Virus genome (UHGV): UHGV-0168080
Length of the DNA: 23,956 bases
Strand: one strand, 5' to 3'
Source of the DNA: a virus
Shown: positions 699 through 17,599 of the stretch, one piece after another
Layout of the letters: each line of letters starts with the position of its first letter
Position numbering within the stretch: the stretch's first letter is position 1
The notes under the pieces: generated by a model
Database searches by the model: none
Told to the model about the DNA's origin: nothing
What the model saw: only the letters and a program-made list of their open reading frames with translations
Position numbers and translations under genes: made by a program

Positions 699-1319
699 AT
701 GCGTAATGTGTGTATTGCCGTTGCTGTCTTTGCCGCACTTGCGGTGACAGTCACTCCGGCCCGTGCGGAAGGTGGACATGGTACGTTTACGGTGGGCTAT
801 TTTCAGGTGAAACCGGGTACATTGCCGTCGTTGTCGGGCGGGGATACCGGTGTGAGTCATCTGAAAGGGATTAACGTGAAGTACCGTTATGAGCTGACGG
901 ACAGTGTGGGGGTGATGGCTTCCCTGGGGTTCGCCGCGTCGAAAAAGAGCAGCACAGTGATGACCGGGGAGGATACGTTTCACTATGAGAGCCTGCGTGG
1001 ACGTTATGTGAGCGTGATGGCCGGACCGGTTTTACAAATCAGTAAGCAGGTCAGTGCGTACGCCATGGCCGGAGTGGCTCACAGTCGGTGGTCCGGCAGT
1101 ACAAGGGATTACCGTAAGACGGAAATCACTCCCGGGTATATGAAAGAGACGACCACCGCCAGGGACGAAAGTGCAATGCGGCATACCTCAGTGGCGTGGA
1201 GTGCAGGTATACAGATTAATCCGGCAGCGTCCGTCGTTGTTGATATTGCTTATGAAGGCTCCGGCAGTGGCGACTGGCGTACTGACGGATTCATCGTTGG
1301 GGTCGGTTATAAATTCTGA
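699..1319 (+). CDS. lom: Outer-membrane beta-barrel protein Lom (Ail/Lom family)
   Basis: 206 aa with an N-terminal signal peptide (MRNVCIAVAVFAALAVTVTPARA) and a C-terminal ...GVGYKF beta-barrel end; sits in the lambda position between J and stf. Confidence 0.9.
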   Translation: MRNVCIAVAVFAALAVTVTPARAEGGHGTFTVGYFQVKPGTLPSLSGGDTGVSHLKGINVKYRYELTDSVGVMASLGFAASKKSSTVMTGEDTFHYESLRGRYVSVMAGPVLQISKQVSAYAMAGVAHSRWSGSTRDYRKTEITPGYMKETTTARDESAMRHTSVAWSAGIQINPAASVVVDIAYEGSGSGDWRTDGFIVGVGYKF

Positions 1320-4822: not shown

Positions 4823-5788
4823 TTAATTATCAGTAGATTGTTCCTCTAGTAACAACTCAATTTTGCTTAGTATTTCTTTAGATATTTTGCGGCTATCAAT
4901 TTTTATAGTTACAAAATTCCCTTTATATCTAGCCGTGATCCCTTCCCCATATTTTTTCTCGTCTTTTGTTTTTTCCTCGTCGCCAACCAGAACAGAGTCA
5001 GATAATATTTGTATAATCCGTGAAGCTTCTAAATCCTCGCCGTTTTTTTTTATTGTCAGAAGATGATGAGCAGCATTGCTCATGGCAGCCATGTTTTTTT
5101 TGTAAATCTTAAACAAAGAATCTCCAGCACGAGCTGACAGTTCTCCTGGATGATTGAAGATAGCTAATATATCTTTTGGTAGACCAGCTGTATTAATACA
5201 GCGAGTGATAATATTTCTATCTATATTTTCAGCCTCGGCCAATGCTTTAACGTTACCATCAAAGTCATTTAGCTTGCGTAAGTATCTCTTTCCTCTTTCG
5301 TATGCACTAATAGGCCTATAATCGTTACCAATTTGGGATAACCAATGCATCTGTTCATCGTCGAGATCACCAATTAAGACGCGATAGTCACATCCTGTTA
5401 ATATCGCTGCTTTTCTTCTACGTGAGCCGTCAGCGACTTCAACGATTCCAGATACTTTTCTGGCGAAAGCTGGATTTTGTTGTCCAGACGTTAGAAAAGA
5501 TGGGATTAAATCGGCTAGAGAGGATTCATTTAATAAATCTTGATCGCGTTCATTACCTAGCCATACCATTGTTGCCATTTCAACTTTATCTGCGGGAATT
5601 GTCTCTAACTTAAAGTTAACATTACGTCCGCATACTGGCAAAGTTATGCTGTTACCGGTTAATGAACTCAGTTGACGTTTTAAATCACCAACCATAGGTG
5701 ATACGGGCTGATGTTCAGGGGCATGATGATTATTACTCATAATGCGATTAATATCTGGAGCATTTTTTAGAAGAGAGCGCTGTTTCAT
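4823..5788 (-). CDS. sopB: Plasmid partition protein SopB (ParB family centromere-binding protein)
   Basis: 321 aa with F SopB-like blocks (ITLPVCGRNVNF, LGNERDQDLL, DGSRRRKAAILT, YRPISAYERG); start overlaps the sopA stop. Confidence 0.9.
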   Translation of the reverse strand: MKQRSLLKNAPDINRIMSNNHHAPEHQPVSPMVGDLKRQLSSLTGNSITLPVCGRNVNFKLETIPADKVEMATMVWLGNERDQDLLNESSLADLIPSFLTSGQQNPAFARKVSGIVEVADGSRRRKAAILTGCDYRVLIGDLDDEQMHWLSQIGNDYRPISAYERGKRYLRKLNDFDGNVKALAEAENIDRNIITRCINTAGLPKDILAIFNHPGELSARAGDSLFKIYKKNMAAMSNAAHHLLTIKKNGEDLEASRIIQILSDSVLVGDEEKTKDEKKYGEGITARYKGNFVTIKIDSRKISKEILSKIELLLEEQSTDN

Positions 5789-6954
5789 TATTCGTTCTCC
5801 CAGCGAGGTTTTATTAGATCATCAAAAATTTCTCTGCAAACAGGGTCCCATATAGAAACAGCATTTCTCCATGCATTCAATGTTGAACGTTGGTTTGCTG
5901 CTTGTTCAAATACTGTTCTCATTTTTATCTGGCCTTTACCTACTTCATCGGTAACGCGTACAACCTGACGTAATACCATTGATCCCCATGTATTTCTTAT
6001 TTGTTCTTCCATCCATCGTGATTGATTCCCTGTAGTGAGACTATATTTAGTCAGAAGTAAGCGAACGGTTGGCTCAAATCCACCTAGGTCAACGCTTTCC
6101 AATAGATCGAGAAGCATTGTGAAAAACTGTAGAACAGAAGCGTAATCAAATAATTCTGCAGGTGTAGCAACAACAATAACGTCAGCGGCACAAACAACGT
6201 TAATGGTTCCTGTACCGAGGTTCGGAGCACTATCTATAACGATAACATCGTAGTTATCCCAAACTGATTCAATAGCTGCGCGCAGCATAAGGTGTGGAGG
6301 ATGAGGCAATTTACCCTGAGCATGATATTGCATGAGATCTGTTTCTATACGATGTAAAGCTAGGCAGCTAGGGATAATGTCTAGCCCAGGCCAACATGTT
6401 GGCTTTATAGCATATTCAGCGTTATCGCGTTCTCCTAAGTAAAATGGCAGTAAAGTATCCTCGGCATGGATATGTAAATCAGGAACATAACCGTGATACA
6501 TAGAGGCTGTACCTTGAGGATCGTTACCTTCAACCAAAAGAACACGATGACCTTGTAATGCTAACCATTGAGCTTGATGTACCGCAGACGATGTTTTATA
6601 AACGCCGCCTTTGTGTGACATAACGGCAAGAACAACAGGGTTTTTATCTTGTGGTCGTTGGTTTGGGTTGCCAAAAACTGCTCGCATACTGTTGATTTGA
6701 TCTATGGTATAACCAGCACGACGTTCAATTCTTCCTCTCATTTCAAAGTCAGGTGCAGGTAAACGCCCGCTCTTCTCAGCATCTCTAATTGCTTGAGGAG
6801 TTACACCAATTAAATCTGCTACTTCAGTAATACCCCATCGGCGGGTGATACGCCGAGCTTCAGGACTATCATCACCGAATTGAGCGATAGCAATTGCTTG
6901 GGTCATTTCTTGACCTCTCGTAACACAATCTTGCAATAGCTTTTTCAAAGACAT
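5788..6954 (-). CDS. sopA: Plasmid partition ATPase SopA (type Ia ParA)
   Basis: 388 aa, collinear with F SopA as I recall it; deviant Walker A KGGVYKTS; N-terminal HTH extension (AIAIAQFGDDSPEARRITRRW); RBS GGAG upstream. Confidence 0.95.
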   Translation of the reverse strand: MSLKKLLQDCVTRGQEMTQAIAIAQFGDDSPEARRITRRWGITEVADLIGVTPQAIRDAEKSGRLPAPDFEMRGRIERRAGYTIDQINSMRAVFGNPNQRPQDKNPVVLAVMSHKGGVYKTSSAVHQAQWLALQGHRVLLVEGNDPQGTASMYHGYVPDLHIHAEDTLLPFYLGERDNAEYAIKPTCWPGLDIIPSCLALHRIETDLMQYHAQGKLPHPPHLMLRAAIESVWDNYDVIVIDSAPNLGTGTINVVCAADVIVVATPAELFDYASVLQFFTMLLDLLESVDLGGFEPTVRLLLTKYSLTTGNQSRWMEEQIRNTWGSMVLRQVVRVTDEVGKGQIKMRTVFEQAANQRSTLNAWRNAVSIWDPVCREIFDDLIKPRWENE

Positions 6955-6975
6955 ACTGTCATCTCCAGCTTGTAA

Positions 6976-7053
6976 CTTTGCTTAATAATTAAATCTTTGC
7001 TTATTTCTAGCAAATTTGCATGAAAAAGGCAAAGCAAAAAGAAAAACGCAAAG
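6976..7053. promoter_or_regulatory. sopAB promoter/operator region with clustered CTTTGC/GCAAAG hexamers
   Basis: CTTTGC at 6976 and 6995, TTTGCA at 7015, GCAAAG at 7029 and 7048, immediately upstream of the sopA start; F SopA autoregulates through CTTTGC repeats. Confidence 0.5.
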
Positions 7054-7242
7054 GAGAATTTTTAAGCTAAATCATCTTTTGTTCCCCTCCCGAAATGCAT
7101 AAAACGAACAACAACATAATCATAAGTAATTGATATTTATTATATTTTTTGAAGAAAGGAAATCATGTAAAACTAGGGAAACATGATAAGAATCATCAAT
7201 GAGATACGTTTTCTCTATTAGTTCTCCCAACCTTACCAATAC

Positions 7243-7310
7243 AAGAACACAAATAAAGAACACAAAAACTAAGTAATGATGCAAACATAATAAAGAACAC
7301 AAATAAAGAA
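7243..7310. repeat. 18-bp direct repeat AAGAACACAAATAAAGAA (x2) plus a further AACACAAA copy on the left flank of the telomere site
   Basis: Exact 18-mer at 7243-7260 and 7293-7310; the reverse-complement motif ATTGTGTT recurs on the right flank (7481, 7503, 7562). Confidence 0.6.
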
Positions 7311-7391
7311 TTAAAGCTAAATGTTAAATAAAGCAGTACACAAAATGAGAATATTACACTAAATAAGAACACTAATCAAGAACATAACGAA

Positions 7392-7433
7392 ACATAATTC
7401 CCCATTATACGCGCGTATAATGGGGAATTATGT
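7392..7433. other. Telomere-resolution site (telRL/tos core): 42-bp perfect palindrome with a central CGCGCG
   Basis: ACATAATTCCCCATTATACGCGCGTATAATGGGGAATTATGT is its own reverse complement, with symmetry centre at 7412/7413. The central 22 bp (CCATTATACGCGCGTATAATGG) is identical to the N15 telO core as I recall it, and the site lies directly upstream of telN. Confidence 0.85.
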
Positions 7434-7603
7434 ACTGATTATCGAAACAAAGTCAAGGAACAAAATTTCACGTTCTGCTATTGTGTTTCATTTTATAGTC
7501 TGATATTGTGTTCTACTATTTTGTGAGTAAGTTAACTAGGTATTGGTTATTTTATTCTTAAATTGTGTTACGATAATCTGAGCGGATAATCAGGAGAAGA
7601 AAG

Positions 7604-9493
7604 ATGAGCAAAGTAAAAATCGGTGAATTAATAAACTCACTTGTTAGCGATGTTGAGTCAATAGATAACTCTGACCGTCCTCAAGGAGAGAAAACAAAAA
7701 AAATAAAGGCCGTTGCATTAAAATTTAAAAATACATTATTTAATGATAAGCGAAAGTTTAGGGGAAAAGGATTAGAAAAGAGAATTACAGCCAACACATT
7801 CAATTCCTATATGAGCAGGGCCAGAAAACGGTTTGATGATAAACTTCATCATAGTTTTGAAAAAAATATACATCGACTATCTGAAAAATATCCTTTATAT
7901 AATGAGGAGCTATTGTCATGGCTCTCTCTACCTGCTGCCGATATTCGCCGGAGAATGTCAGCTTTACAGGCAAAATTAAAATTAATTATTCCTCTGTCCG
8001 AAGATTTATCTAATATCAGAATTGGTGATAATAAAAATAATAATAAGTTAATAAAGTTATCAAATAAATATAAAGAATGGCAATTTGCCATTTCTGATTT
8101 AACTAGCGATAACTGGAAAGATAAACGCGATTATTTATATAAATTACTACAGCAAGGGTCAGCCTTGCTTGAGGAGTTGAATCAGTTAAAGGTTAACCAT
8201 GAGATTCTCTATCATCTCAAACTAAGCCCTGCCGAACGCGCATCTATCCAGCAACGATGGGCGGACGTACTACACAATAAGAAACGTAACGTAGTAGTCA
8301 TTGACTACCCTAAATATATGCAAGCTATTTACGATATTATAAATAGCCCTGCTACATTAAATAATCTAAACACTCGTTCAGGCATGGCTCCTTTGGCATT
8401 TGCTCTTGCTGCATTATCAGGAAGACGAATGATTGAGATTATGTATCAAGGTACATTTACTGTCTCTGGTAAGTATACCGTTGATTTTTTAGGTCAGGCT
8501 AAAAAAAGAACTACTGATGATGTAACCAGAAAAATATATACATTATGCGAAGCAAAAACGTTTGTTTATTTAATAAATGTACTTCGCTCATGCCCAGCAG
8601 CATCTGATTTTGATGAAGTCGTTATGGGTTACGGAAATAACGACACGCGGTCTGAAAACGGACGTATTAATGCCATATTGGCAAAGGCTTTTAATCCATG
8701 GGTTAAATCATTTTTCAATGATAATCGCCGTGTTTATAAAGATAGTCGTGCTATTTATGCCCGTATTGCGTATGAAATGTTTTTCCGCGTAGATCCCCGT
8801 TGGAAAAATGTAGATGAAGATGTTTTCTTTATGGAAATTTTAGGCCATGACGATGAAAACACTCAATTACACTATAAACAATTCAAGCTGGCCAACTTCT
8901 CAAAGACATGGAGGCCAAATACTGGAAACGAAAATACCAGGCTGGAAGCATTGCAGCTGCTTGATGACGAAATGCCTGGATTCGCCAGAGGAGATGCCGG
9001 GGTTCGTCTGCATAACACAGTTAAGCAGCTGGTAGAGCAGGACCCCTCTATAAAAATCACGAACAGCACTCTAAGAGCATTCAAATTTAGCCCAACAATG
9101 ATTAGTCGATACCTGGAATTTGCTGCTGATGCTCTGGGGCAATTTGTTGGCGAAAATGGACAATGGCAGCTGAAAATAGATACTCCAGAAATCGTTATGC
9201 CTGACGAAGAAGAGCTGGAAGCAATACCTGAACAGATGGATGAATTATCAGAGGATGACGATCTGGATGACGACGAAATTGAGATAGAGGAAGAGGAAGA
9301 GAGCGTAGAAGAACAGCAACCGCCAGCGCCTTCTTCACCTGTATCTAAGCCGGTATTTAAGCCTGTGAGAAATATTGGTGATGGCTCATACGTTGTTGAG
9401 TTTCATTATAATGGCCAGAATTATGCGTGGTCAGGCAGTGCAAACAGCCCCATGTCAGCAATGCAGTTAGCATGGCTGACATATTTCGGCTAA
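7604..9493 (+). CDS. telN: Protelomerase TelN (hairpin telomere resolvase)
   Basis: 629 aa; near-collinear with N15 TelN from the N-terminus (MSKVKIGELIN...DRPQG.KTK.IKA...NDKRKFRGKGL.KRITANTFN.YMSRARKRFDDKLHHSF) to the C-terminus; acidic C-terminal tail; RBS AGGAGAAG. Confidence 0.95.
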   Translation: MSKVKIGELINSLVSDVESIDNSDRPQGEKTKKIKAVALKFKNTLFNDKRKFRGKGLEKRITANTFNSYMSRARKRFDDKLHHSFEKNIHRLSEKYPLYNEELLSWLSLPAADIRRRMSALQAKLKLIIPLSEDLSNIRIGDNKNNNKLIKLSNKYKEWQFAISDLTSDNWKDKRDYLYKLLQQGSALLEELNQLKVNHEILYHLKLSPAERASIQQRWADVLHNKKRNVVVIDYPKYMQAIYDIINSPATLNNLNTRSGMAPLAFALAALSGRRMIEIMYQGTFTVSGKYTVDFLGQAKKRTTDDVTRKIYTLCEAKTFVYLINVLRSCPAASDFDEVVMGYGNNDTRSENGRINAILAKAFNPWVKSFFNDNRRVYKDSRAIYARIAYEMFFRVDPRWKNVDEDVFFMEILGHDDENTQLHYKQFKLANFSKTWRPNTGNENTRLEALQLLDDEMPGFARGDAGVRLHNTVKQLVEQDPSIKITNSTLRAFKFSPTMISRYLEFAADALGQFVGENGQWQLKIDTPEIVMPDEEELEAIPEQMDELSEDDDLDDDEIEIEEEEESVEEQQPPAPSSPVSKPVFKPVRNIGDGSYVVEFHYNGQNYAWSGSANSPMSAMQLAWLTYFG

Positions 9494-11467: not shown

Positions 11468-12283
11468 ATGGATACTATCGTTGTGACAGCTCCATCACCA
11501 TCAACTAACTTACCGAGTTATGGTAATGGCGCATTTTCTCTCTCAGCACCACACGTGCCTGGTTCTGGCCCCCTTTTAGTCCAGGTGGTTTACAGCTTTT
11601 TCCAGAGCCCAAACATGTGTATTCAGGCTCTAACTCAGCTTGAGGACTACATCAAAAAACACGGTGCCAGCGATCCCCTGACATTACAAATTATGTCAAC
11701 AAATATTGCCTACTTCTGTAACGCTGACAGAAACCTTATCCTTCACCGCGGAATAAGTGTTTATGACGCCTACCACTTAGCTAAACCTGCGCCAAATAAA
11801 TATGACTATCGCTCAATGAATATGAAACAAATGAGCGGTAATGTCACAACACCAATTGTGGCGCTTGCACACTATTTATGGGGTAATGGTGCAGACCGAA
11901 GCGTTAATATCGCAAATATTGGTCTCAAAATTTCTCCGATGAAAATTAATCAGATAAGAGATATTGTAAAATCTGGTGTAGTAGGCACATTCCCTATTTC
12001 TACAAAATTCACACACGCCACTGGCGATTATAATGTTATTACCGGCGCATATCTTGGTAATATCACGCTGAAAACAGAAGGTACTTTAACTGTCTCCGCT
12101 AATGGCTCATGGACCTATAATGGCGTTGTTCGCTCGTATAACGACAAGTATGACTTCAATGCCAGCACTCATCGTGGCGTAATCGGAGAGTCTCTTACAA
12201 GGCTCGGGGCGATGTTCTCTGGTAAAGAGTATCAGATACTACTTCCTGGCGAAATTCACATTAAAGAAAGTGGCAAGCGATAA
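11468..12283 (+). CDS. cma: Colicin M (lipid II-targeting bacteriocin)
   Basis: 271 aa, same length as colicin M and collinear with it as I recall the sequence (..APSPSTNLPSYGNGAFSLSAPHVPG.GPLLVQVVYSFFQSPNMC.QALTQLEDYIKKHGAS ... ILLPGEIHIKESGKR). Confidence 0.93.
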   Translation: MDTIVVTAPSPSTNLPSYGNGAFSLSAPHVPGSGPLLVQVVYSFFQSPNMCIQALTQLEDYIKKHGASDPLTLQIMSTNIAYFCNADRNLILHRGISVYDAYHLAKPAPNKYDYRSMNMKQMSGNVTTPIVALAHYLWGNGADRSVNIANIGLKISPMKINQIRDIVKSGVVGTFPISTKFTHATGDYNVITGAYLGNITLKTEGTLTVSANGSWTYNGVVRSYNDKYDFNASTHRGVIGESLTRLGAMFSGKEYQILLPGEIHIKESGKR

Positions 12284-12333: not shown

Positions 12334-12690
12334 TCAATCATTTGCATATTCAACATAACCTTCCTTGCAATGGTACATTCCATAATACATTCTCTTACCT
12401 TCCGGGCCTTCGGCTTTAAATGGGACGAGAAGCGTTTTTTCATCTTTAACATCTGTTAAGCTTCTTTCAATCTTTTCCCACGTAATTTTTGGGGCTTCTG
12501 TACCGAGAAGTTGTACATCGTTATTCCAACGCGTTATTTTTTTCAAAAAGTCATTTTTTACAAATTCTCTTGCCTGTTCATCACTAACCTTATAGCACTC
12601 TGGGCCTTTATTAGATTCAGGCCAGAAAAATACAATAGCAAGAGCAATAATTGATAAAATCAAAATGATTTTTATGCTAATTACTTTCAT
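12334..12690 (-). CDS. cmi: Colicin M immunity protein Cmi
   Basis: 118 aa; N-terminal membrane anchor (ILILSIIALAIVFFW) and strong resemblance to Cmi (..YKVSDEQAREFVKND....WNNDVQLLGTE.PKITWEKIERSLTDV.DEKTLLVPFKAEGP.GKRMYYGMYHC.EGYVEYAND); convergent with cma. Confidence 0.9.
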   Translation of the reverse strand: MKVISIKIILILSIIALAIVFFWPESNKGPECYKVSDEQAREFVKNDFLKKITRWNNDVQLLGTEAPKITWEKIERSLTDVKDEKTLLVPFKAEGPEGKRMYYGMYHCKEGYVEYAND

Positions 12691-13603: not shown

Positions 13604-16600
13604 TTACCCATAGAAAGCGCCCTGCTCTTCGTAGCTGCATGGGCTATTCCCGGTAATATATTCACGTAACCGCCGCAGTTCATTACTGGACAAGTGATCC
13701 ATGAACTCTGTTAGGTACAGAGATGCAAACGTCATAGCTATGCTGGCTGATGACCATGATGACATAGTGGCCAGCTCCTCACAGGAAAGCGCACTCATAG
13801 CCCAGGACTCAGGTACAGCCACCGGCAACACTGCCAAAGCCTCAGAAATTACTGAATGAGGGGCGTTTTGAACCTGCTCATTTGTGGATCGCGTTTTATC
13901 ATCCATATATATATTGAGATCCAAATCGCGATCCATTTCGATGGCGGTCTTCTCGGCTTTGCGCGTTTTCAGGGTTAGGCCATCTTTCTGACGCTGAGCA
14001 AGAATATCCAGCATAAATGCCGCTGATTCAGGCTCAACAAAACGCAAGGTTGGACGCTTATCGCCGTCTCTGCCACGACGTTTACCTGTTTTAAGGCCAA
14101 GAGAGTCGCAAATGTTTTTAAACAACGCTTCCGGCACTTTAGGCTTCCCTTTTGGCGTCATAAAACCACCAATGTGCAGAACGTTATTCAACAGGTCACG
14201 GCGTTCGGCTGTCATGAGGTTATCTCGAGCGAATTTGAGACGCTCCTGAGTCGCCTCGCCGGTCATAGTCTCAGGGTTGATACCGCAGTCGATAAAGTAC
14301 TGCCGGAGAGTTGCTGATTTAAGCGCATAGAAACCGCGCGCCCCGACTTCAACAGTAGGAGTAGCTTTTACCTTGTAGTCGATTATTCCAGGGAATTTAG
14401 TTTTAAAGACATCATCAGCCTGCTCGCGAGTCATCGCGGTCACTACAAAATATTGCCACTGTCCCGCCTGACGGTATGCGTAGGTAAAATTGATGGCTGC
14501 TTCTTCCCGGTCGTAACGACGAGCTGTTACCTCATCTAAAAGCATTGTTTCATAGCGGCGAACTTTGTCTCGAGCACCATCGAAATAGAATTTCAGCGTG
14601 CCTTCTTCAACCGGTAGTTTCAGTTCGTTCTCAATATCCCAGCGGACAAGTTTTGCCTGTTCTTCAAGCGTCAGCGCGCGTTTTTTTAGCAGTTCTTCAC
14701 GCTCTGATTCTTGTGGAGTTTCTGTATTGAGATGCAGATCCAGTGTCTGTTCCCACACAATATCCCGCGCTTCTTTACGCAGATCTTTACCGATATCATT
14801 CGCAGCATAATCGGTGGCCAGCGGCGATACCTTATAACCGTCGCTGTGCATGATGCAGATCATGTTGCTGGCGTAGTCGTTACGCGCAGACGCTTCAATT
14901 GCGGCTGCTTTAATTTTCATCCTGGTAAAGTCGGTATTGGCCACCCCCATTGATATACGGTCGCCATCGAAAACGACATCCGTCAGTTCACCGTTCATGC
15001 CTGCGGTAGCAAGCAATGCCTGGGCGAATGCTCGTTCTATTTTTTGCGGGTCAGTTTCACGTTTTGCGCGAGCTTTATCAAAGCCGATAATAAATTCTTT
15101 TGCTGTACGGTCGCGGCGTAGCATTTGCACTGCGTCGCTGGGTACAACTTCACCACAGAACATGCCGAAATGACGGTCAAAATGTTTTTGCTCAATCGAC
15201 ACGCCGGATGAAATAGACGGGCTATAAATCAGGCCGTCGTATTTTTTGACCATCTTTTTCGGTTGATTGGTAAATGCTTCAACTTCTGGCTCTGGTTTGT
15301 TTTTCTGGTTTACACACAGAAATTTCTTACCAGGAAAATGCATTCTCAGGGTGGCGGTCACATCTTCTGCAAAGGTGGAGCTGTCGGTGGCCAACATAAT
15401 TTTTTCGCCATCCGATACAGCTTTCACCACCTCGGTCATAATGCGATCTTTTTCTGTATAAAAAACCCGGATTGGCTCACCTGTTTCGCGGTTGCGAACA
15501 TCAACAGGTAATTCAATTACGTGGATCTGCAGCCATGCGGGTAAACCGAGTTCTTCGCGGCGTTTCATAGCCAGTTCAGCCAGGTCAACCAGCAGATCGT
15601 TCGCATCAGCATCCACCATGATTGGGTGTTGTTCCGTTCTGGCCAGCGCATCAATTAGCGTATTGAATACAGCCACCGGGTTTTCCATAGCCCGACCGGA
15701 AAGAACGGCACGTAGCCCTTGTGTTGCCTCGTCAAAGCCAAAATAGTCGTGCTGGCGCATCAACGGTTGCCAGCAGTTTTTAACAATCGAGTTTATGCAG
15801 ATGGTCAGTTTACTGGCGTATGGGGCCATTTCCTGATAGCCAGGGTCCTGATAGTGCAGGATATCGGCTTTTACACCTTTTCCTTCAGTCATCATTTCCC
15901 ACAGACCACCAATAAGGGAAACACGGTGAGCTACAGAGATACCACGTTCTGAGCTATGCATTAACGGTCGTAACAATCCAGTAGATTTGCCGGAACCCAT
16001 ACCAGCACGGACGATGACTATCCCCTGTAGTGATTGCACGTACTTCAGGACGTCATCGGTCATTACCGAAGTATCAAAACGCTTATAGGTGATATGTTGA
16101 GGGCGTTTATTGGGATCAGTTATGCGTTCGCTGAAAGAGCGCGGAGCCTGGGCAATACGGCACTTTTTATTCAGGCGACGGGCAATATGGTCTTTTACCG
16201 TAGCGCGATAGATATTTTCCAGCCCCATTTCACGCAGAACGATACAGAACATGTTAAATAAATCTGACGGGCTGTTAGGAACCGGACAGGTCAGCATGCC
16301 AATATCTACCGCTCTCAGCAGCTCTTTGGCAAAAGTACGGCGGTTATCCCGCTTAATTGTCTTCAGGCGGTTGAGTGTCAGAGATAGCAAATCAGTACCG
16401 GTTTTCAGGCGGTTTGCTGTTGCGAATAGTTGACGTGCTGTTTCACGAAGTCCACGTAGTTTGTGCAGGTCGTTGAAGTCACTGCACTCCATTTGCGGAT
16501 CGTCTTCAAAAGTTGGGTAGACGCAGCGGACATCGTTGAATTTAGATAAGATTTCATAGCCAGTCCGCAGGCCGGTATTCCCTTTTCCTTCTGTGGCAGA

Positions 16601-17599
16601 TTTCCGGTCATTATCCAGTGCGCAGGTGATTTTTGCCGCCGGGTACATGTTTACCAGTTGTTCCACAACATGAACCATGTTGTTAGCGGATACAGCGACA
16701 ACCACAGCGTCAAAGCGTTTATCTTTTTTCGTGGCAAGCCAGATGGATGCACCAGTAGCAAAACCTTCTGTAACAGCGATGTTTTGCGCCCCTTTCAGCT
16801 CACCGATAACAAAGCAGGCACCGACGAAATCGCCGCTGGTTACTGCGCTGGTCTGGTATTTCCCACCTTGTTTGTCGATTCGCTGCCAACCCACAATACG
16901 ACCATCATAACGACCGTCCAGGTGAGCCAGAGGGATAGCCATATATGTGGTTGGCCCCCGGCTCCATTTCGCACTGTCGTGACTGGTCACGCGACGCACA
17001 TCACATGAACTAAAAACGTCACGAATACCTTTTTTAATCGCATATGGCCATGAGCCGTCTTCAGCCTGAGCATGTTCCCACGCGCTGTGGAATGCCAGCC
17101 ATCCCAGCAAACGTTCATGGTCCATTTGGTTGTTTTTCAGGTCATTAATTCGTTTTTGTTCTTCACGGCGACGACGTGCTTCGGCCTGACGTTCTATTCT
17201 TTCCCGTTCTTCTTCCGGTTGTGCGACCACGGTCGCATTATTCCGTTGTTGCTCACGGCGATATTCAGAAAACAGGAAGGAGAAACCGCTCCATGAGCCA
17301 GCATCGCTGCCTTTATGGACGAAGTTAATGAACGGGTAATCAATCCCTTTGCTGTGTTCCAGCCTGGAGTAAATTTCTACGCGTCCTTTCAGGCTCTTTT
17401 CGAGAGCTTCTGGAGATGTTTTATTGTATGAAGAGTAACGCTCAACCCCCCCGCGAGGGTTGAGTTGGATGTTGTCGGAACAGGCAGGCCAGTTGATACC
17501 AGCCATCTGTGCCAGCTCGGTTAGTTCATCCCGTGCTGCTTCAATTAGCGAGAACGGATCGCTGCCAAAGCGATCCGCATAGAAATCGTTTAATGTCAT
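13604..17599 (-). CDS. repA: Replication protein RepA (multidomain primase-helicase, N15 RepA-like)
   Basis: 1331 aa; Walker A GMGSGKSTG inside a helicase-like core; size and position (upstream of cB, same strand) match N15 repA. Confidence 0.92.
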   Translation of the reverse strand: MTLNDFYADRFGSDPFSLIEAARDELTELAQMAGINWPACSDNIQLNPRGGVERYSSYNKTSPEALEKSLKGRVEIYSRLEHSKGIDYPFINFVHKGSDAGSWSGFSFLFSEYRREQQRNNATVVAQPEEERERIERQAEARRRREEQKRINDLKNNQMDHERLLGWLAFHSAWEHAQAEDGSWPYAIKKGIRDVFSSCDVRRVTSHDSAKWSRGPTTYMAIPLAHLDGRYDGRIVGWQRIDKQGGKYQTSAVTSGDFVGACFVIGELKGAQNIAVTEGFATGASIWLATKKDKRFDAVVVAVSANNMVHVVEQLVNMYPAAKITCALDNDRKSATEGKGNTGLRTGYEILSKFNDVRCVYPTFEDDPQMECSDFNDLHKLRGLRETARQLFATANRLKTGTDLLSLTLNRLKTIKRDNRRTFAKELLRAVDIGMLTCPVPNSPSDLFNMFCIVLREMGLENIYRATVKDHIARRLNKKCRIAQAPRSFSERITDPNKRPQHITYKRFDTSVMTDDVLKYVQSLQGIVIVRAGMGSGKSTGLLRPLMHSSERGISVAHRVSLIGGLWEMMTEGKGVKADILHYQDPGYQEMAPYASKLTICINSIVKNCWQPLMRQHDYFGFDEATQGLRAVLSGRAMENPVAVFNTLIDALARTEQHPIMVDADANDLLVDLAELAMKRREELGLPAWLQIHVIELPVDVRNRETGEPIRVFYTEKDRIMTEVVKAVSDGEKIMLATDSSTFAEDVTATLRMHFPGKKFLCVNQKNKPEPEVEAFTNQPKKMVKKYDGLIYSPSISSGVSIEQKHFDRHFGMFCGEVVPSDAVQMLRRDRTAKEFIIGFDKARAKRETDPQKIERAFAQALLATAGMNGELTDVVFDGDRISMGVANTDFTRMKIKAAAIEASARNDYASNMICIMHSDGYKVSPLATDYAANDIGKDLRKEARDIVWEQTLDLHLNTETPQESEREELLKKRALTLEEQAKLVRWDIENELKLPVEEGTLKFYFDGARDKVRRYETMLLDEVTARRYDREEAAINFTYAYRQAGQWQYFVVTAMTREQADDVFKTKFPGIIDYKVKATPTVEVGARGFYALKSATLRQYFIDCGINPETMTGEATQERLKFARDNLMTAERRDLLNNVLHIGGFMTPKGKPKVPEALFKNICDSLGLKTGKRRGRDGDKRPTLRFVEPESAAFMLDILAQRQKDGLTLKTRKAEKTAIEMDRDLDLNIYMDDKTRSTNEQVQNAPHSVISEALAVLPVAVPESWAMSALSCEELATMSSWSSASIAMTFASLYLTEFMDHLSSNELRRLREYITGNSPCSYEEQGAFYG
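13885..13935. other. Candidate internal replication origin element inside the 3' end of repA
   Basis: 9-bp inverted repeat TGGATCGCG (13885-13893) / CGCGATCCA (13927-13935) flanking an (AT)5 tract. Confidence 0.3.
17222..17237. repeat. sopC-like centromere box TGCGACC-AC-GGTCGCA (candidate SopB binding site) inside repA
   Basis: 16-bp palindrome with the same architecture as the F sopC core TGGGACC-AC-GGTCCCA. Confidence 0.5.

Follow-up and report, generated by a model that had tools for sequence, protein, structure and literature searches.

A probable N15-type telRL site with variant arms, uncut between sopA and telN of a phage-plasmid contig

The window, by which is meant the whole stretch of 23,956 nucleotides that was analysed, contains a 42-bp perfect palindrome that we regard with high confidence as the telomere-resolution site (telRL) of an N15-like (Ravinvirus-type) temperate phage, the prophage of which would be a linear plasmid with hairpin ends. 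The site is an ordinary member of the known N15/phiKO2 telomere-resolution family. It marks the contig as an N15-group telomere phage-plasmid with predicted prophage ends at 7412/7413, a position that is needed for the correct annotation of its topology. Beyond annotation its value is modest and no new mechanism is implied; the palindrome and an identical TelN are already widespread in public assemblies, and close relatives have been deposited. The window is a whole SPAdes-style metagenome contig (ENA ERZ653643, NODE_678_length_23956_cov_7.616209; L050 among the loci compared here). The features at and around the site are listed below.

4823..5788, minus strand: sopB, centromere-binding partition protein (Pfam SoPB_HTH)
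5788..6954, minus strand: sopA, ParA-type partition ATPase, with 93% amino acid identity to N15 SopA; first gene to the left of the site
7243..7387, plus strand: left degenerate repeats of AAGAACACAAATAAAG type with ACA[CT]AA[AT], L1/L2-like (copies at 7243, 7293, and 7365)
7385..7440, no strand: equivalent of the 56-bp N15 telRL (telO and L3/R3-type arm motifs), from half-site alignment
7392..7433, no strand: telRL core palindrome (telO and inner arm positions), with predicted hairpin tips at 7412/7413
7402..7423, no strand: telO core of 22 bp, CCATTATACGCGCGTATAATGG, identical to the N15 and phiKO2 telRL cores
7410..7415, no strand: central CGCGCG, read directly; the predicted 6 bp between staggered TelN cuts
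7465..7569, minus strand: right degenerate repeats of ATTGTGTT type, R1/R2-like, mirror-oriented to the left repeats (copies at 7465, 7490, and 7550)
7604..9493, plus strand: telN, protelomerase of 629 aa with four TelK-type Pfam domains
13604..17599, minus strand: repA, primase/helicase-type linear-plasmid replication protein of 1331 aa (Pfam Toprim_3 and Herpes_ori_bp)

Positions 7392-7433 consist of two 21-nt arms (ACATAATTCCCCATTATACGC up to the centre and GCGTATAATGGGGAATTATGT beyond it) that are 100% complementary with zero spacer around 7412/7413, and the palindrome ends at 42 bp because 7391 and 7434 are both A. Its coordinates, length, and centre were confirmed as originally predicted, both by direct reading and by a palindrome scan. 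Given the base composition of this 24-kb window, the chance expectation for zero-spacer palindromes with a half-length of at least 21 is approximately 6e-9, and the runner-up in the window reaches a half-length of only 8. As single-stranded DNA, the 56-nt stretch forms a 19-pair hairpin of -18.1 kcal/mol (z = -8.1 compared to shuffles). The 22-bp core was found as a single copy in the window and was encountered in 0 of 100 shuffles.

A palindrome of this kind could also represent another hairpin element, for example an intrinsic terminator acting in both directions or a sopA-telN operator. The palindrome was indeed flagged on the minus strand in a terminator scan, with the stem followed by TTCGTTATGT, but the T-tail is weak, and with sopA and telN both reading away from the region, no transcript ends at the site. 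Furthermore, the core agrees at every base with the experimentally defined N15 cut site, and relatives end or fold back exactly at the palindrome. Given the divergent genes and the N15 core, the terminator and the operator were rejected as extremely improbable. A promoter scan of 6900-7650 returned 2 matches compared to 3.5 expected by chance. It was noted that a promoter-like match at 7427-7456 on the minus strand (TTGACT, an 18-nt spacer, and CATAAT) covers part of the right arm and is directed across the site at sopA; were this match genuine, sopAB could be transcribed from it only in the uncut state, and such matches are no commoner than in shuffles.

As originally predicted, the telO-type palindrome sits directly upstream of a full-length protelomerase gene, the telN reading frame being complete and separated from it by a gap of 170 nt. 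The Pfam domains of this reading frame are TelK_N, muzzle, ResT/TelK catalytic (ResT-TelK_cat), and stirrup, and the TelK structure (PDB 2V6E) matches residues 1-536 of the window TelN (E 8e-292). The protelomerase homology on which the prediction had been staked was found to be present (N15 TelN 79%, TelK 76%, PY54 Tel 41-43%); in a five-way MAFFT alignment the identities to the window TelN were 97% for PhiR46_1, 79% for N15 TelN, 76% for TelK, and 41% for PY54 Tel. The residues R275, K300, H415, and Y424 are invariant in this alignment and, together with the four domains, identify the adjacent gene product as a protelomerase with a tyrosine-recombinase-type active site. The window Y424 is the counterpart of Y425 in TelK and N15 TelN, and TelN carrying Y425F is reported to be inactive (PMC12624138).

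The palindrome is located inside a 649-bp intergenic region (29% G+C) flanked by the diverging sopA and telN genes. A tail-fibre gene and its assembly gene lie to the left of sopB, and the genes to the right of telN comprise a Bro-N gene, a colicin M/immunity pair, repA, a CI-like repressor, cro, and Q. Relatives of repA carry the annotation 'plasmid replication protein, CyRepA1 family'. The order tail fibre-sopB-sopA-tel site-telN-Bro-N-repA-repressor-cro-Q matches the N15 virion map, where the site is likewise situated between sopA and telN. The layout is thus of the N15 type: the site has the partition genes on one side and telN on the other, and the telN arm also bears repA and the immunity region. 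The predicted linear, hairpin-ended phage-plasmid is supported by this gene order, the telO core, the complete protelomerase, and the fold-backs encountered in relatives. Among the tail genes, a Lom/Ail-family outer-membrane protein gene was also observed (699-1319, plus strand; PF06316 and PF13505), as in lambda-like phages.

The degenerate repeats on the two sides of the palindrome are strictly partitioned by strand. The motif ACA[CT]AA[AT] was found in six copies on the plus strand and none on the minus strand to the left of the centre, and in four copies on the minus strand (including 7486, 7511, and 7568) and none on the plus strand to the right of it, such that 10 of the 24 copies in the window lie within approximately 400 bp at the site. 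N15 and the window both possess mirror-oriented GAACA/ACACAA-type repeats around the site. The N15 natural target, in the account given by PMC12624138 (citing Deneke 2002), spans approximately 310 bp, with the arm motif repeated in degenerate form as L1/L2 and R1/R2. By analogy with what has been proposed for N15, the flanking repeats of the window probably recruit further TelN.

The palindrome and TelN were aligned to their counterparts in N15, phiKO2, and PY54. The N15 reference was the annotated inverted repeat of NC_001901 (24775-24830, 'cut at 24802/3') and the phiKO2 reference was the annotated telRL of NC_005857, with the TelK crystal structure 2V6E. As stated in the original prediction, the central 22 bp of the window match the N15 telO core; they are identical, including the central CGCGCG, to the cores of N15 and phiKO2, and different from that of PY54. 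The arms of the 56-bp equivalent, read from the centre outward, are GGAATTATGTTTCGTTA on the left and GGAATTATGTACTGATT on the right. Beyond the core they split into GGAATTATGT TTCGTTA (left) and GGAATTATGT ACTGATT (right), compared to ACTATTGTGT GCTGATA and GCAATTGTGT GCTGATA in N15. The arms had been predicted to be unlike those of N15, and this was borne out by 6-8 of 10 identical positions at 12-21 from the centre and 9-13 of 17 at 12-28, with the differences falling at positions 13, 14, 18, and 22-26. Perfect symmetry extends over 21 nt per arm in the window, whereas in N15 it covers 11 nt and is followed by an imperfect inverted repeat. The N15 TelN possesses the same four domains and catalytic residues as the window TelN.

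Across the half-sites of N15 and phiKO2 together, 9-14 of the 17 arm positions are identical to those of the window. Among characterised arms, the one most similar to the window right arm (GGAATTATGTACTGATTATCG) is that on the right of phiKO2 (GCTATTATGTGCTGATTATCG; 14 of 17), and the phiKO2 left arm, unlike that of the window, carries GTTGTGT. The TelK acidic C-terminal tail is longer than that of the window TelN. Judged from these alignments, the window arms differ from the N15 and phiKO2 arms yet are clearly homologous to them.

The nearest deposited relatives are two Escherichia phages, PhiR46_1 (PV340565, with a 'telL site' annotated) and YDC107_1 (CP025712, genus Ravinvirus), whose TelN is 97% (MAFFT) or 94.6% (tblastn) identical to that of the window. 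Their arms are of the ATTATGT type, like those of the window (GAAATTATGTGCTGAT), with A rather than G at position 13 and G rather than A at position 22. The telN-repA region is different from that of the window, and PhiR46_1 carries an annotated Spackle gene without colicin M. Each record either stops at the site or folds back there, and both represent the prophage/fold-back form, without the intact junction of the window. A literature search for the tel sites of PhiR46_1 and YDC107_1 found no paper. In YDC107_1, it was also noted that the second telN copy is broken into three frameshifted pieces.

The PY54 pal site is, like that of the window, a 42-bp perfect palindrome upstream of a protelomerase gene (PMC3540006). 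The equal length raised the identification of the window palindrome with PY54 pal as a candidate, which was rejected on sequence. Only the central TACGCGCGTA (approximately 10 nt) is common to both, the core being otherwise different (…GCATACTACGC/GCGTAGTATGC…), and PY54 Tel is 41-43% identical to the window TelN.

Signatures of hairpin ends were found in a range of public records. A protein identical to the window TelN was present in 59 blocks of the assembly collection. The identical 42-mer palindrome was found at the IMG/VR loci L006, L015, L019, and L034 and also in L047 and L049, two isolate assemblies with identical TelN that contain the same uncut junction as the window. By comparison, L048 (ERZ27228175 k141_27587), a 96,085-bp MEGAHIT contig with identical TelN, shows a telN><telN fold-back at the same centre, in which the half-palindrome is perfect over all 9,809 nt of flank examined and the arm is the window's own right arm. 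The reciprocal sopA><sopA fold-back was encountered in L044 (plasmid pEND_Eco 123-2, NZ_CP126957.1 53490-59523), the flank of which is 99.5% identical to the window left flank, and likewise in L041 and L018. Three further loci with identical TelN begin close to the centre: L051 starts 23 nt to the left of it, where its first bases, GT, are those complementary to the right arm and not those of the left flank, and the starts of L053 and L054 lie 12 and 23 nt to its right. The record of a close relative, L045, begins exactly at the centre base. A relative was carried by 18 of 5,426 complete E. coli genomes; among 19 complete E. coli records, 6 cross the junction and the rest break at 7392, at 7433, or at the record end.

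Fold-backs and truncations of this type are the expected product of reading round a hairpin, and resolution at 7412/7413 into two hairpin ends in vivo is therefore accepted here at the level of sequence. On the basis of homology and these assembly signatures, the window TelN is predicted to cleave the window site. It was further observed that several public records, 62-96 kb in length and labelled either as 'circular' plasmids or as a phage 'complete genome' (L044, L002 = CP025712.1, and L048), are really fold-backs, representing a linear hairpin plasmid of approximately 46-48 kb read as an inverted duplicate around the tel site. Another observation was that L006 and L015 (IMGVR_UViG_2734482591, contigs 000004 and 000008), which belong to one genome, end and begin exactly at opposite edges of the palindrome, one contig carrying sopA and the other telN, which shows short-read assembly breaking at the palindrome.

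The cut-and-reseal steps for TelN and TelK have been drawn from prior work (PMC3558466, PMC3575837), including the 6-bp stagger, the phosphotyrosine intermediate, and CGCGCG as the TelK spacer (PMC3558466), and 56 bp are sufficient for N15 TelN (PMC3540006). By homology with these two enzymes, the steps in the window element may be outlined as follows. Two TelN monomers would bind in head-to-head orientation, one per half-site (half of telO and an arm motif), and would bend the DNA. TelN would then cut both strands 6 bp apart around CGCGCG, at predicted positions, through Tyr424 with the formation of 3'-phosphotyrosine links. Each strand would be resealed onto its own complement, giving two covalently closed hairpins. 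One of the resulting ends would carry sopAB and the virion genes, and the other telN, repA, and the immunity genes. TelN probably remains bound and may shield the ends from SbcCD (PMC12624138). An uncut site, as in this contig, is what virion DNA, the genome circularised after infection, and lytic replicative forms contain.

The window runs from the tail genes through sopBA and the site to telN and repA, and it therefore presents a left-right junction and not a fold-back. For this intact junction the original prediction had proposed virion-type DNA, a replicative junction, or an assembler join; these are the right options. We consider that the junction probably derives from virion or lytic-replicative/circular DNA. 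The less likely reading is that the tel site is genuine and the left-right junction is an assembly artefact, in which the linear hairpin prophage would have been the sole form in the sample and the common 42-bp palindrome would have led the assembler from one telomere into the other. This artefact, which we hold to be rather unlikely, draws on the palindrome being common to both telomeres, so that k-mers of 42 or fewer are ambiguous, on the low coverage (cov 7.6 in the contig name), and on the tendency of short-read assemblies to break or wrap at the palindrome, as in the single genome of L006 and L015 and in L051-L054, which end there. However, k-mers containing both 7391 and 7434 arise solely from the left-right junction molecule because the flanks are asymmetric at these positions. 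The final k values of SPAdes-type assemblies are normally above 42, and with a final k of this size the join would need real junction reads. Hairpin artefacts also normally yield fold-backs or contig ends and not left-right joins, the identical junction was recovered independently in the two isolate assemblies L047 and L049, and related junctions are present in 6 complete E. coli records. The origin in virion or lytic-replicative/circular DNA is accordingly preferred.

We also assessed how far the arms vary across the family and whether the differences in the window bear on TelN specificity. A scan for the 22-bp core recovered 37 IMG/VR stretches and 1 GTDB genome, this sole GTDB locus being from Pseudocitrobacter with N15-type arms. 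Forty distinct 34-nt half-sites were then compared, taken from the core-scan loci, the reference phages, and further loci. Among these, little or no variation was seen at G12, A15, T16, T17, T19, G20, T21, G25, and T27, variation was free at positions 13, 14, and 18, and positions 22-24 and 26 are mostly GCT and A with minority variants. Both window arms retain every conserved position and were thus recognised as inverted arms of the L3/R3 type, and they depart from N15 at variable positions only. The left-arm TTCGTT (positions 22-27) and the right-arm A22 deviate from the common GCTGAT. Such non-GCTGAT arms could in principle weaken TelN binding, and the same arms occur at fold-back ends. By separating free from fixed arm positions, the comparison of the 40 half-sites provides a guide for the design of TelN and TelK substrates.

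The original prediction described the window as carrying a variant TelN/target pair. The arms do differ; an altered pairing is not established, the differences being at family-variable positions and phiKO2 having both A and G. A stronger form of this proposal holds that TelN and its tel site are a specificity-shifted pair, in which the ATTATGT arms and the asymmetric sopA-side arm are read only by this TelN clade. We judge this shift to be improbable, and it is just as doubtful that, as the shift would imply, N15 TelN or TelK would fail to resolve the window site. Every locus with a TelN at least 95% identical to that of the window (>13 loci, both telomeres) has A at position 18, and loci with a TelN 70-79% identical mostly have G. 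The association of position 18 with the TelN clade is confounded, however, because common descent alone would give the same pattern. The window TelN shares only 79% identity with N15 TelN and 76% with TelK, and N15 TelN and PY54 Tel, which are strictly site-specific, do not act on each other's ends (PMC12624138). Against a shift, the invariant arm positions and the whole 22-bp core are unchanged, the catalytic and stirrup regions are almost the same as in TelK, and the Klebsiella-type loci L031 and L007 also have A at position 18. Within its single natural site, phiKO2 combines an arm with G at position 18 and an arm with A, and a changed TelN specificity is therefore not indicated.

The window belongs to a sub-lineage, within the clade with TelN at least 95% identical, that has a non-symmetric sopA-side arm (TTCGTT) and A22 on the telN side. 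That the E. coli clade as a whole (TelN at least 95% identical, ATTATGT arms) forms a telomere 'specificity group' whose ends N15 TelN and TelK could neither resolve nor protect is a conjecture to which we assign little credence. If it were true, two telomere phage-plasmids could coexist in one cell without cross-processing, and an orthogonal protelomerase/site pair would be available for making linear closed DNA. One other locus of the comparison stands out, L040 (14689-14710; IMGVR_UViG_3300036778_000064), with a protelomerase 58% identical to that of the window, an identical 22-bp core, and clearly different arms (GAAATGTGGTGACGAT). Judged by sequence, this locus is a far stronger candidate than the window for a divergent pairing of enzyme and arms.

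Within the window, the colicin M/Cmi module is more noteworthy than the tel site. The colicin M reading frame (11468-12283, plus strand; 271 aa) is 92% identical at the amino acid level to cma of the pColBM type and gives a full-length match to PDB 2xmx, and the Cmi-like immunity reading frame (12334-12690, minus strand; 118 aa) is 82% identical to cmi with a YebF-like Pfam match. Among 440 PLSDB plasmids matching the module, none exceeded 90% nucleotide identity. According to a 2025 preprint, the N15-like elements of E. coli and Shigella contain no homologue of the characterised NAR688 telocin. The pair is situated between telN and repA, in the slot that the 'telocin' locus occupies in Klebsiella (PMC12042878), and the module was also found in several isolate and metagenome contigs with identical TelN.
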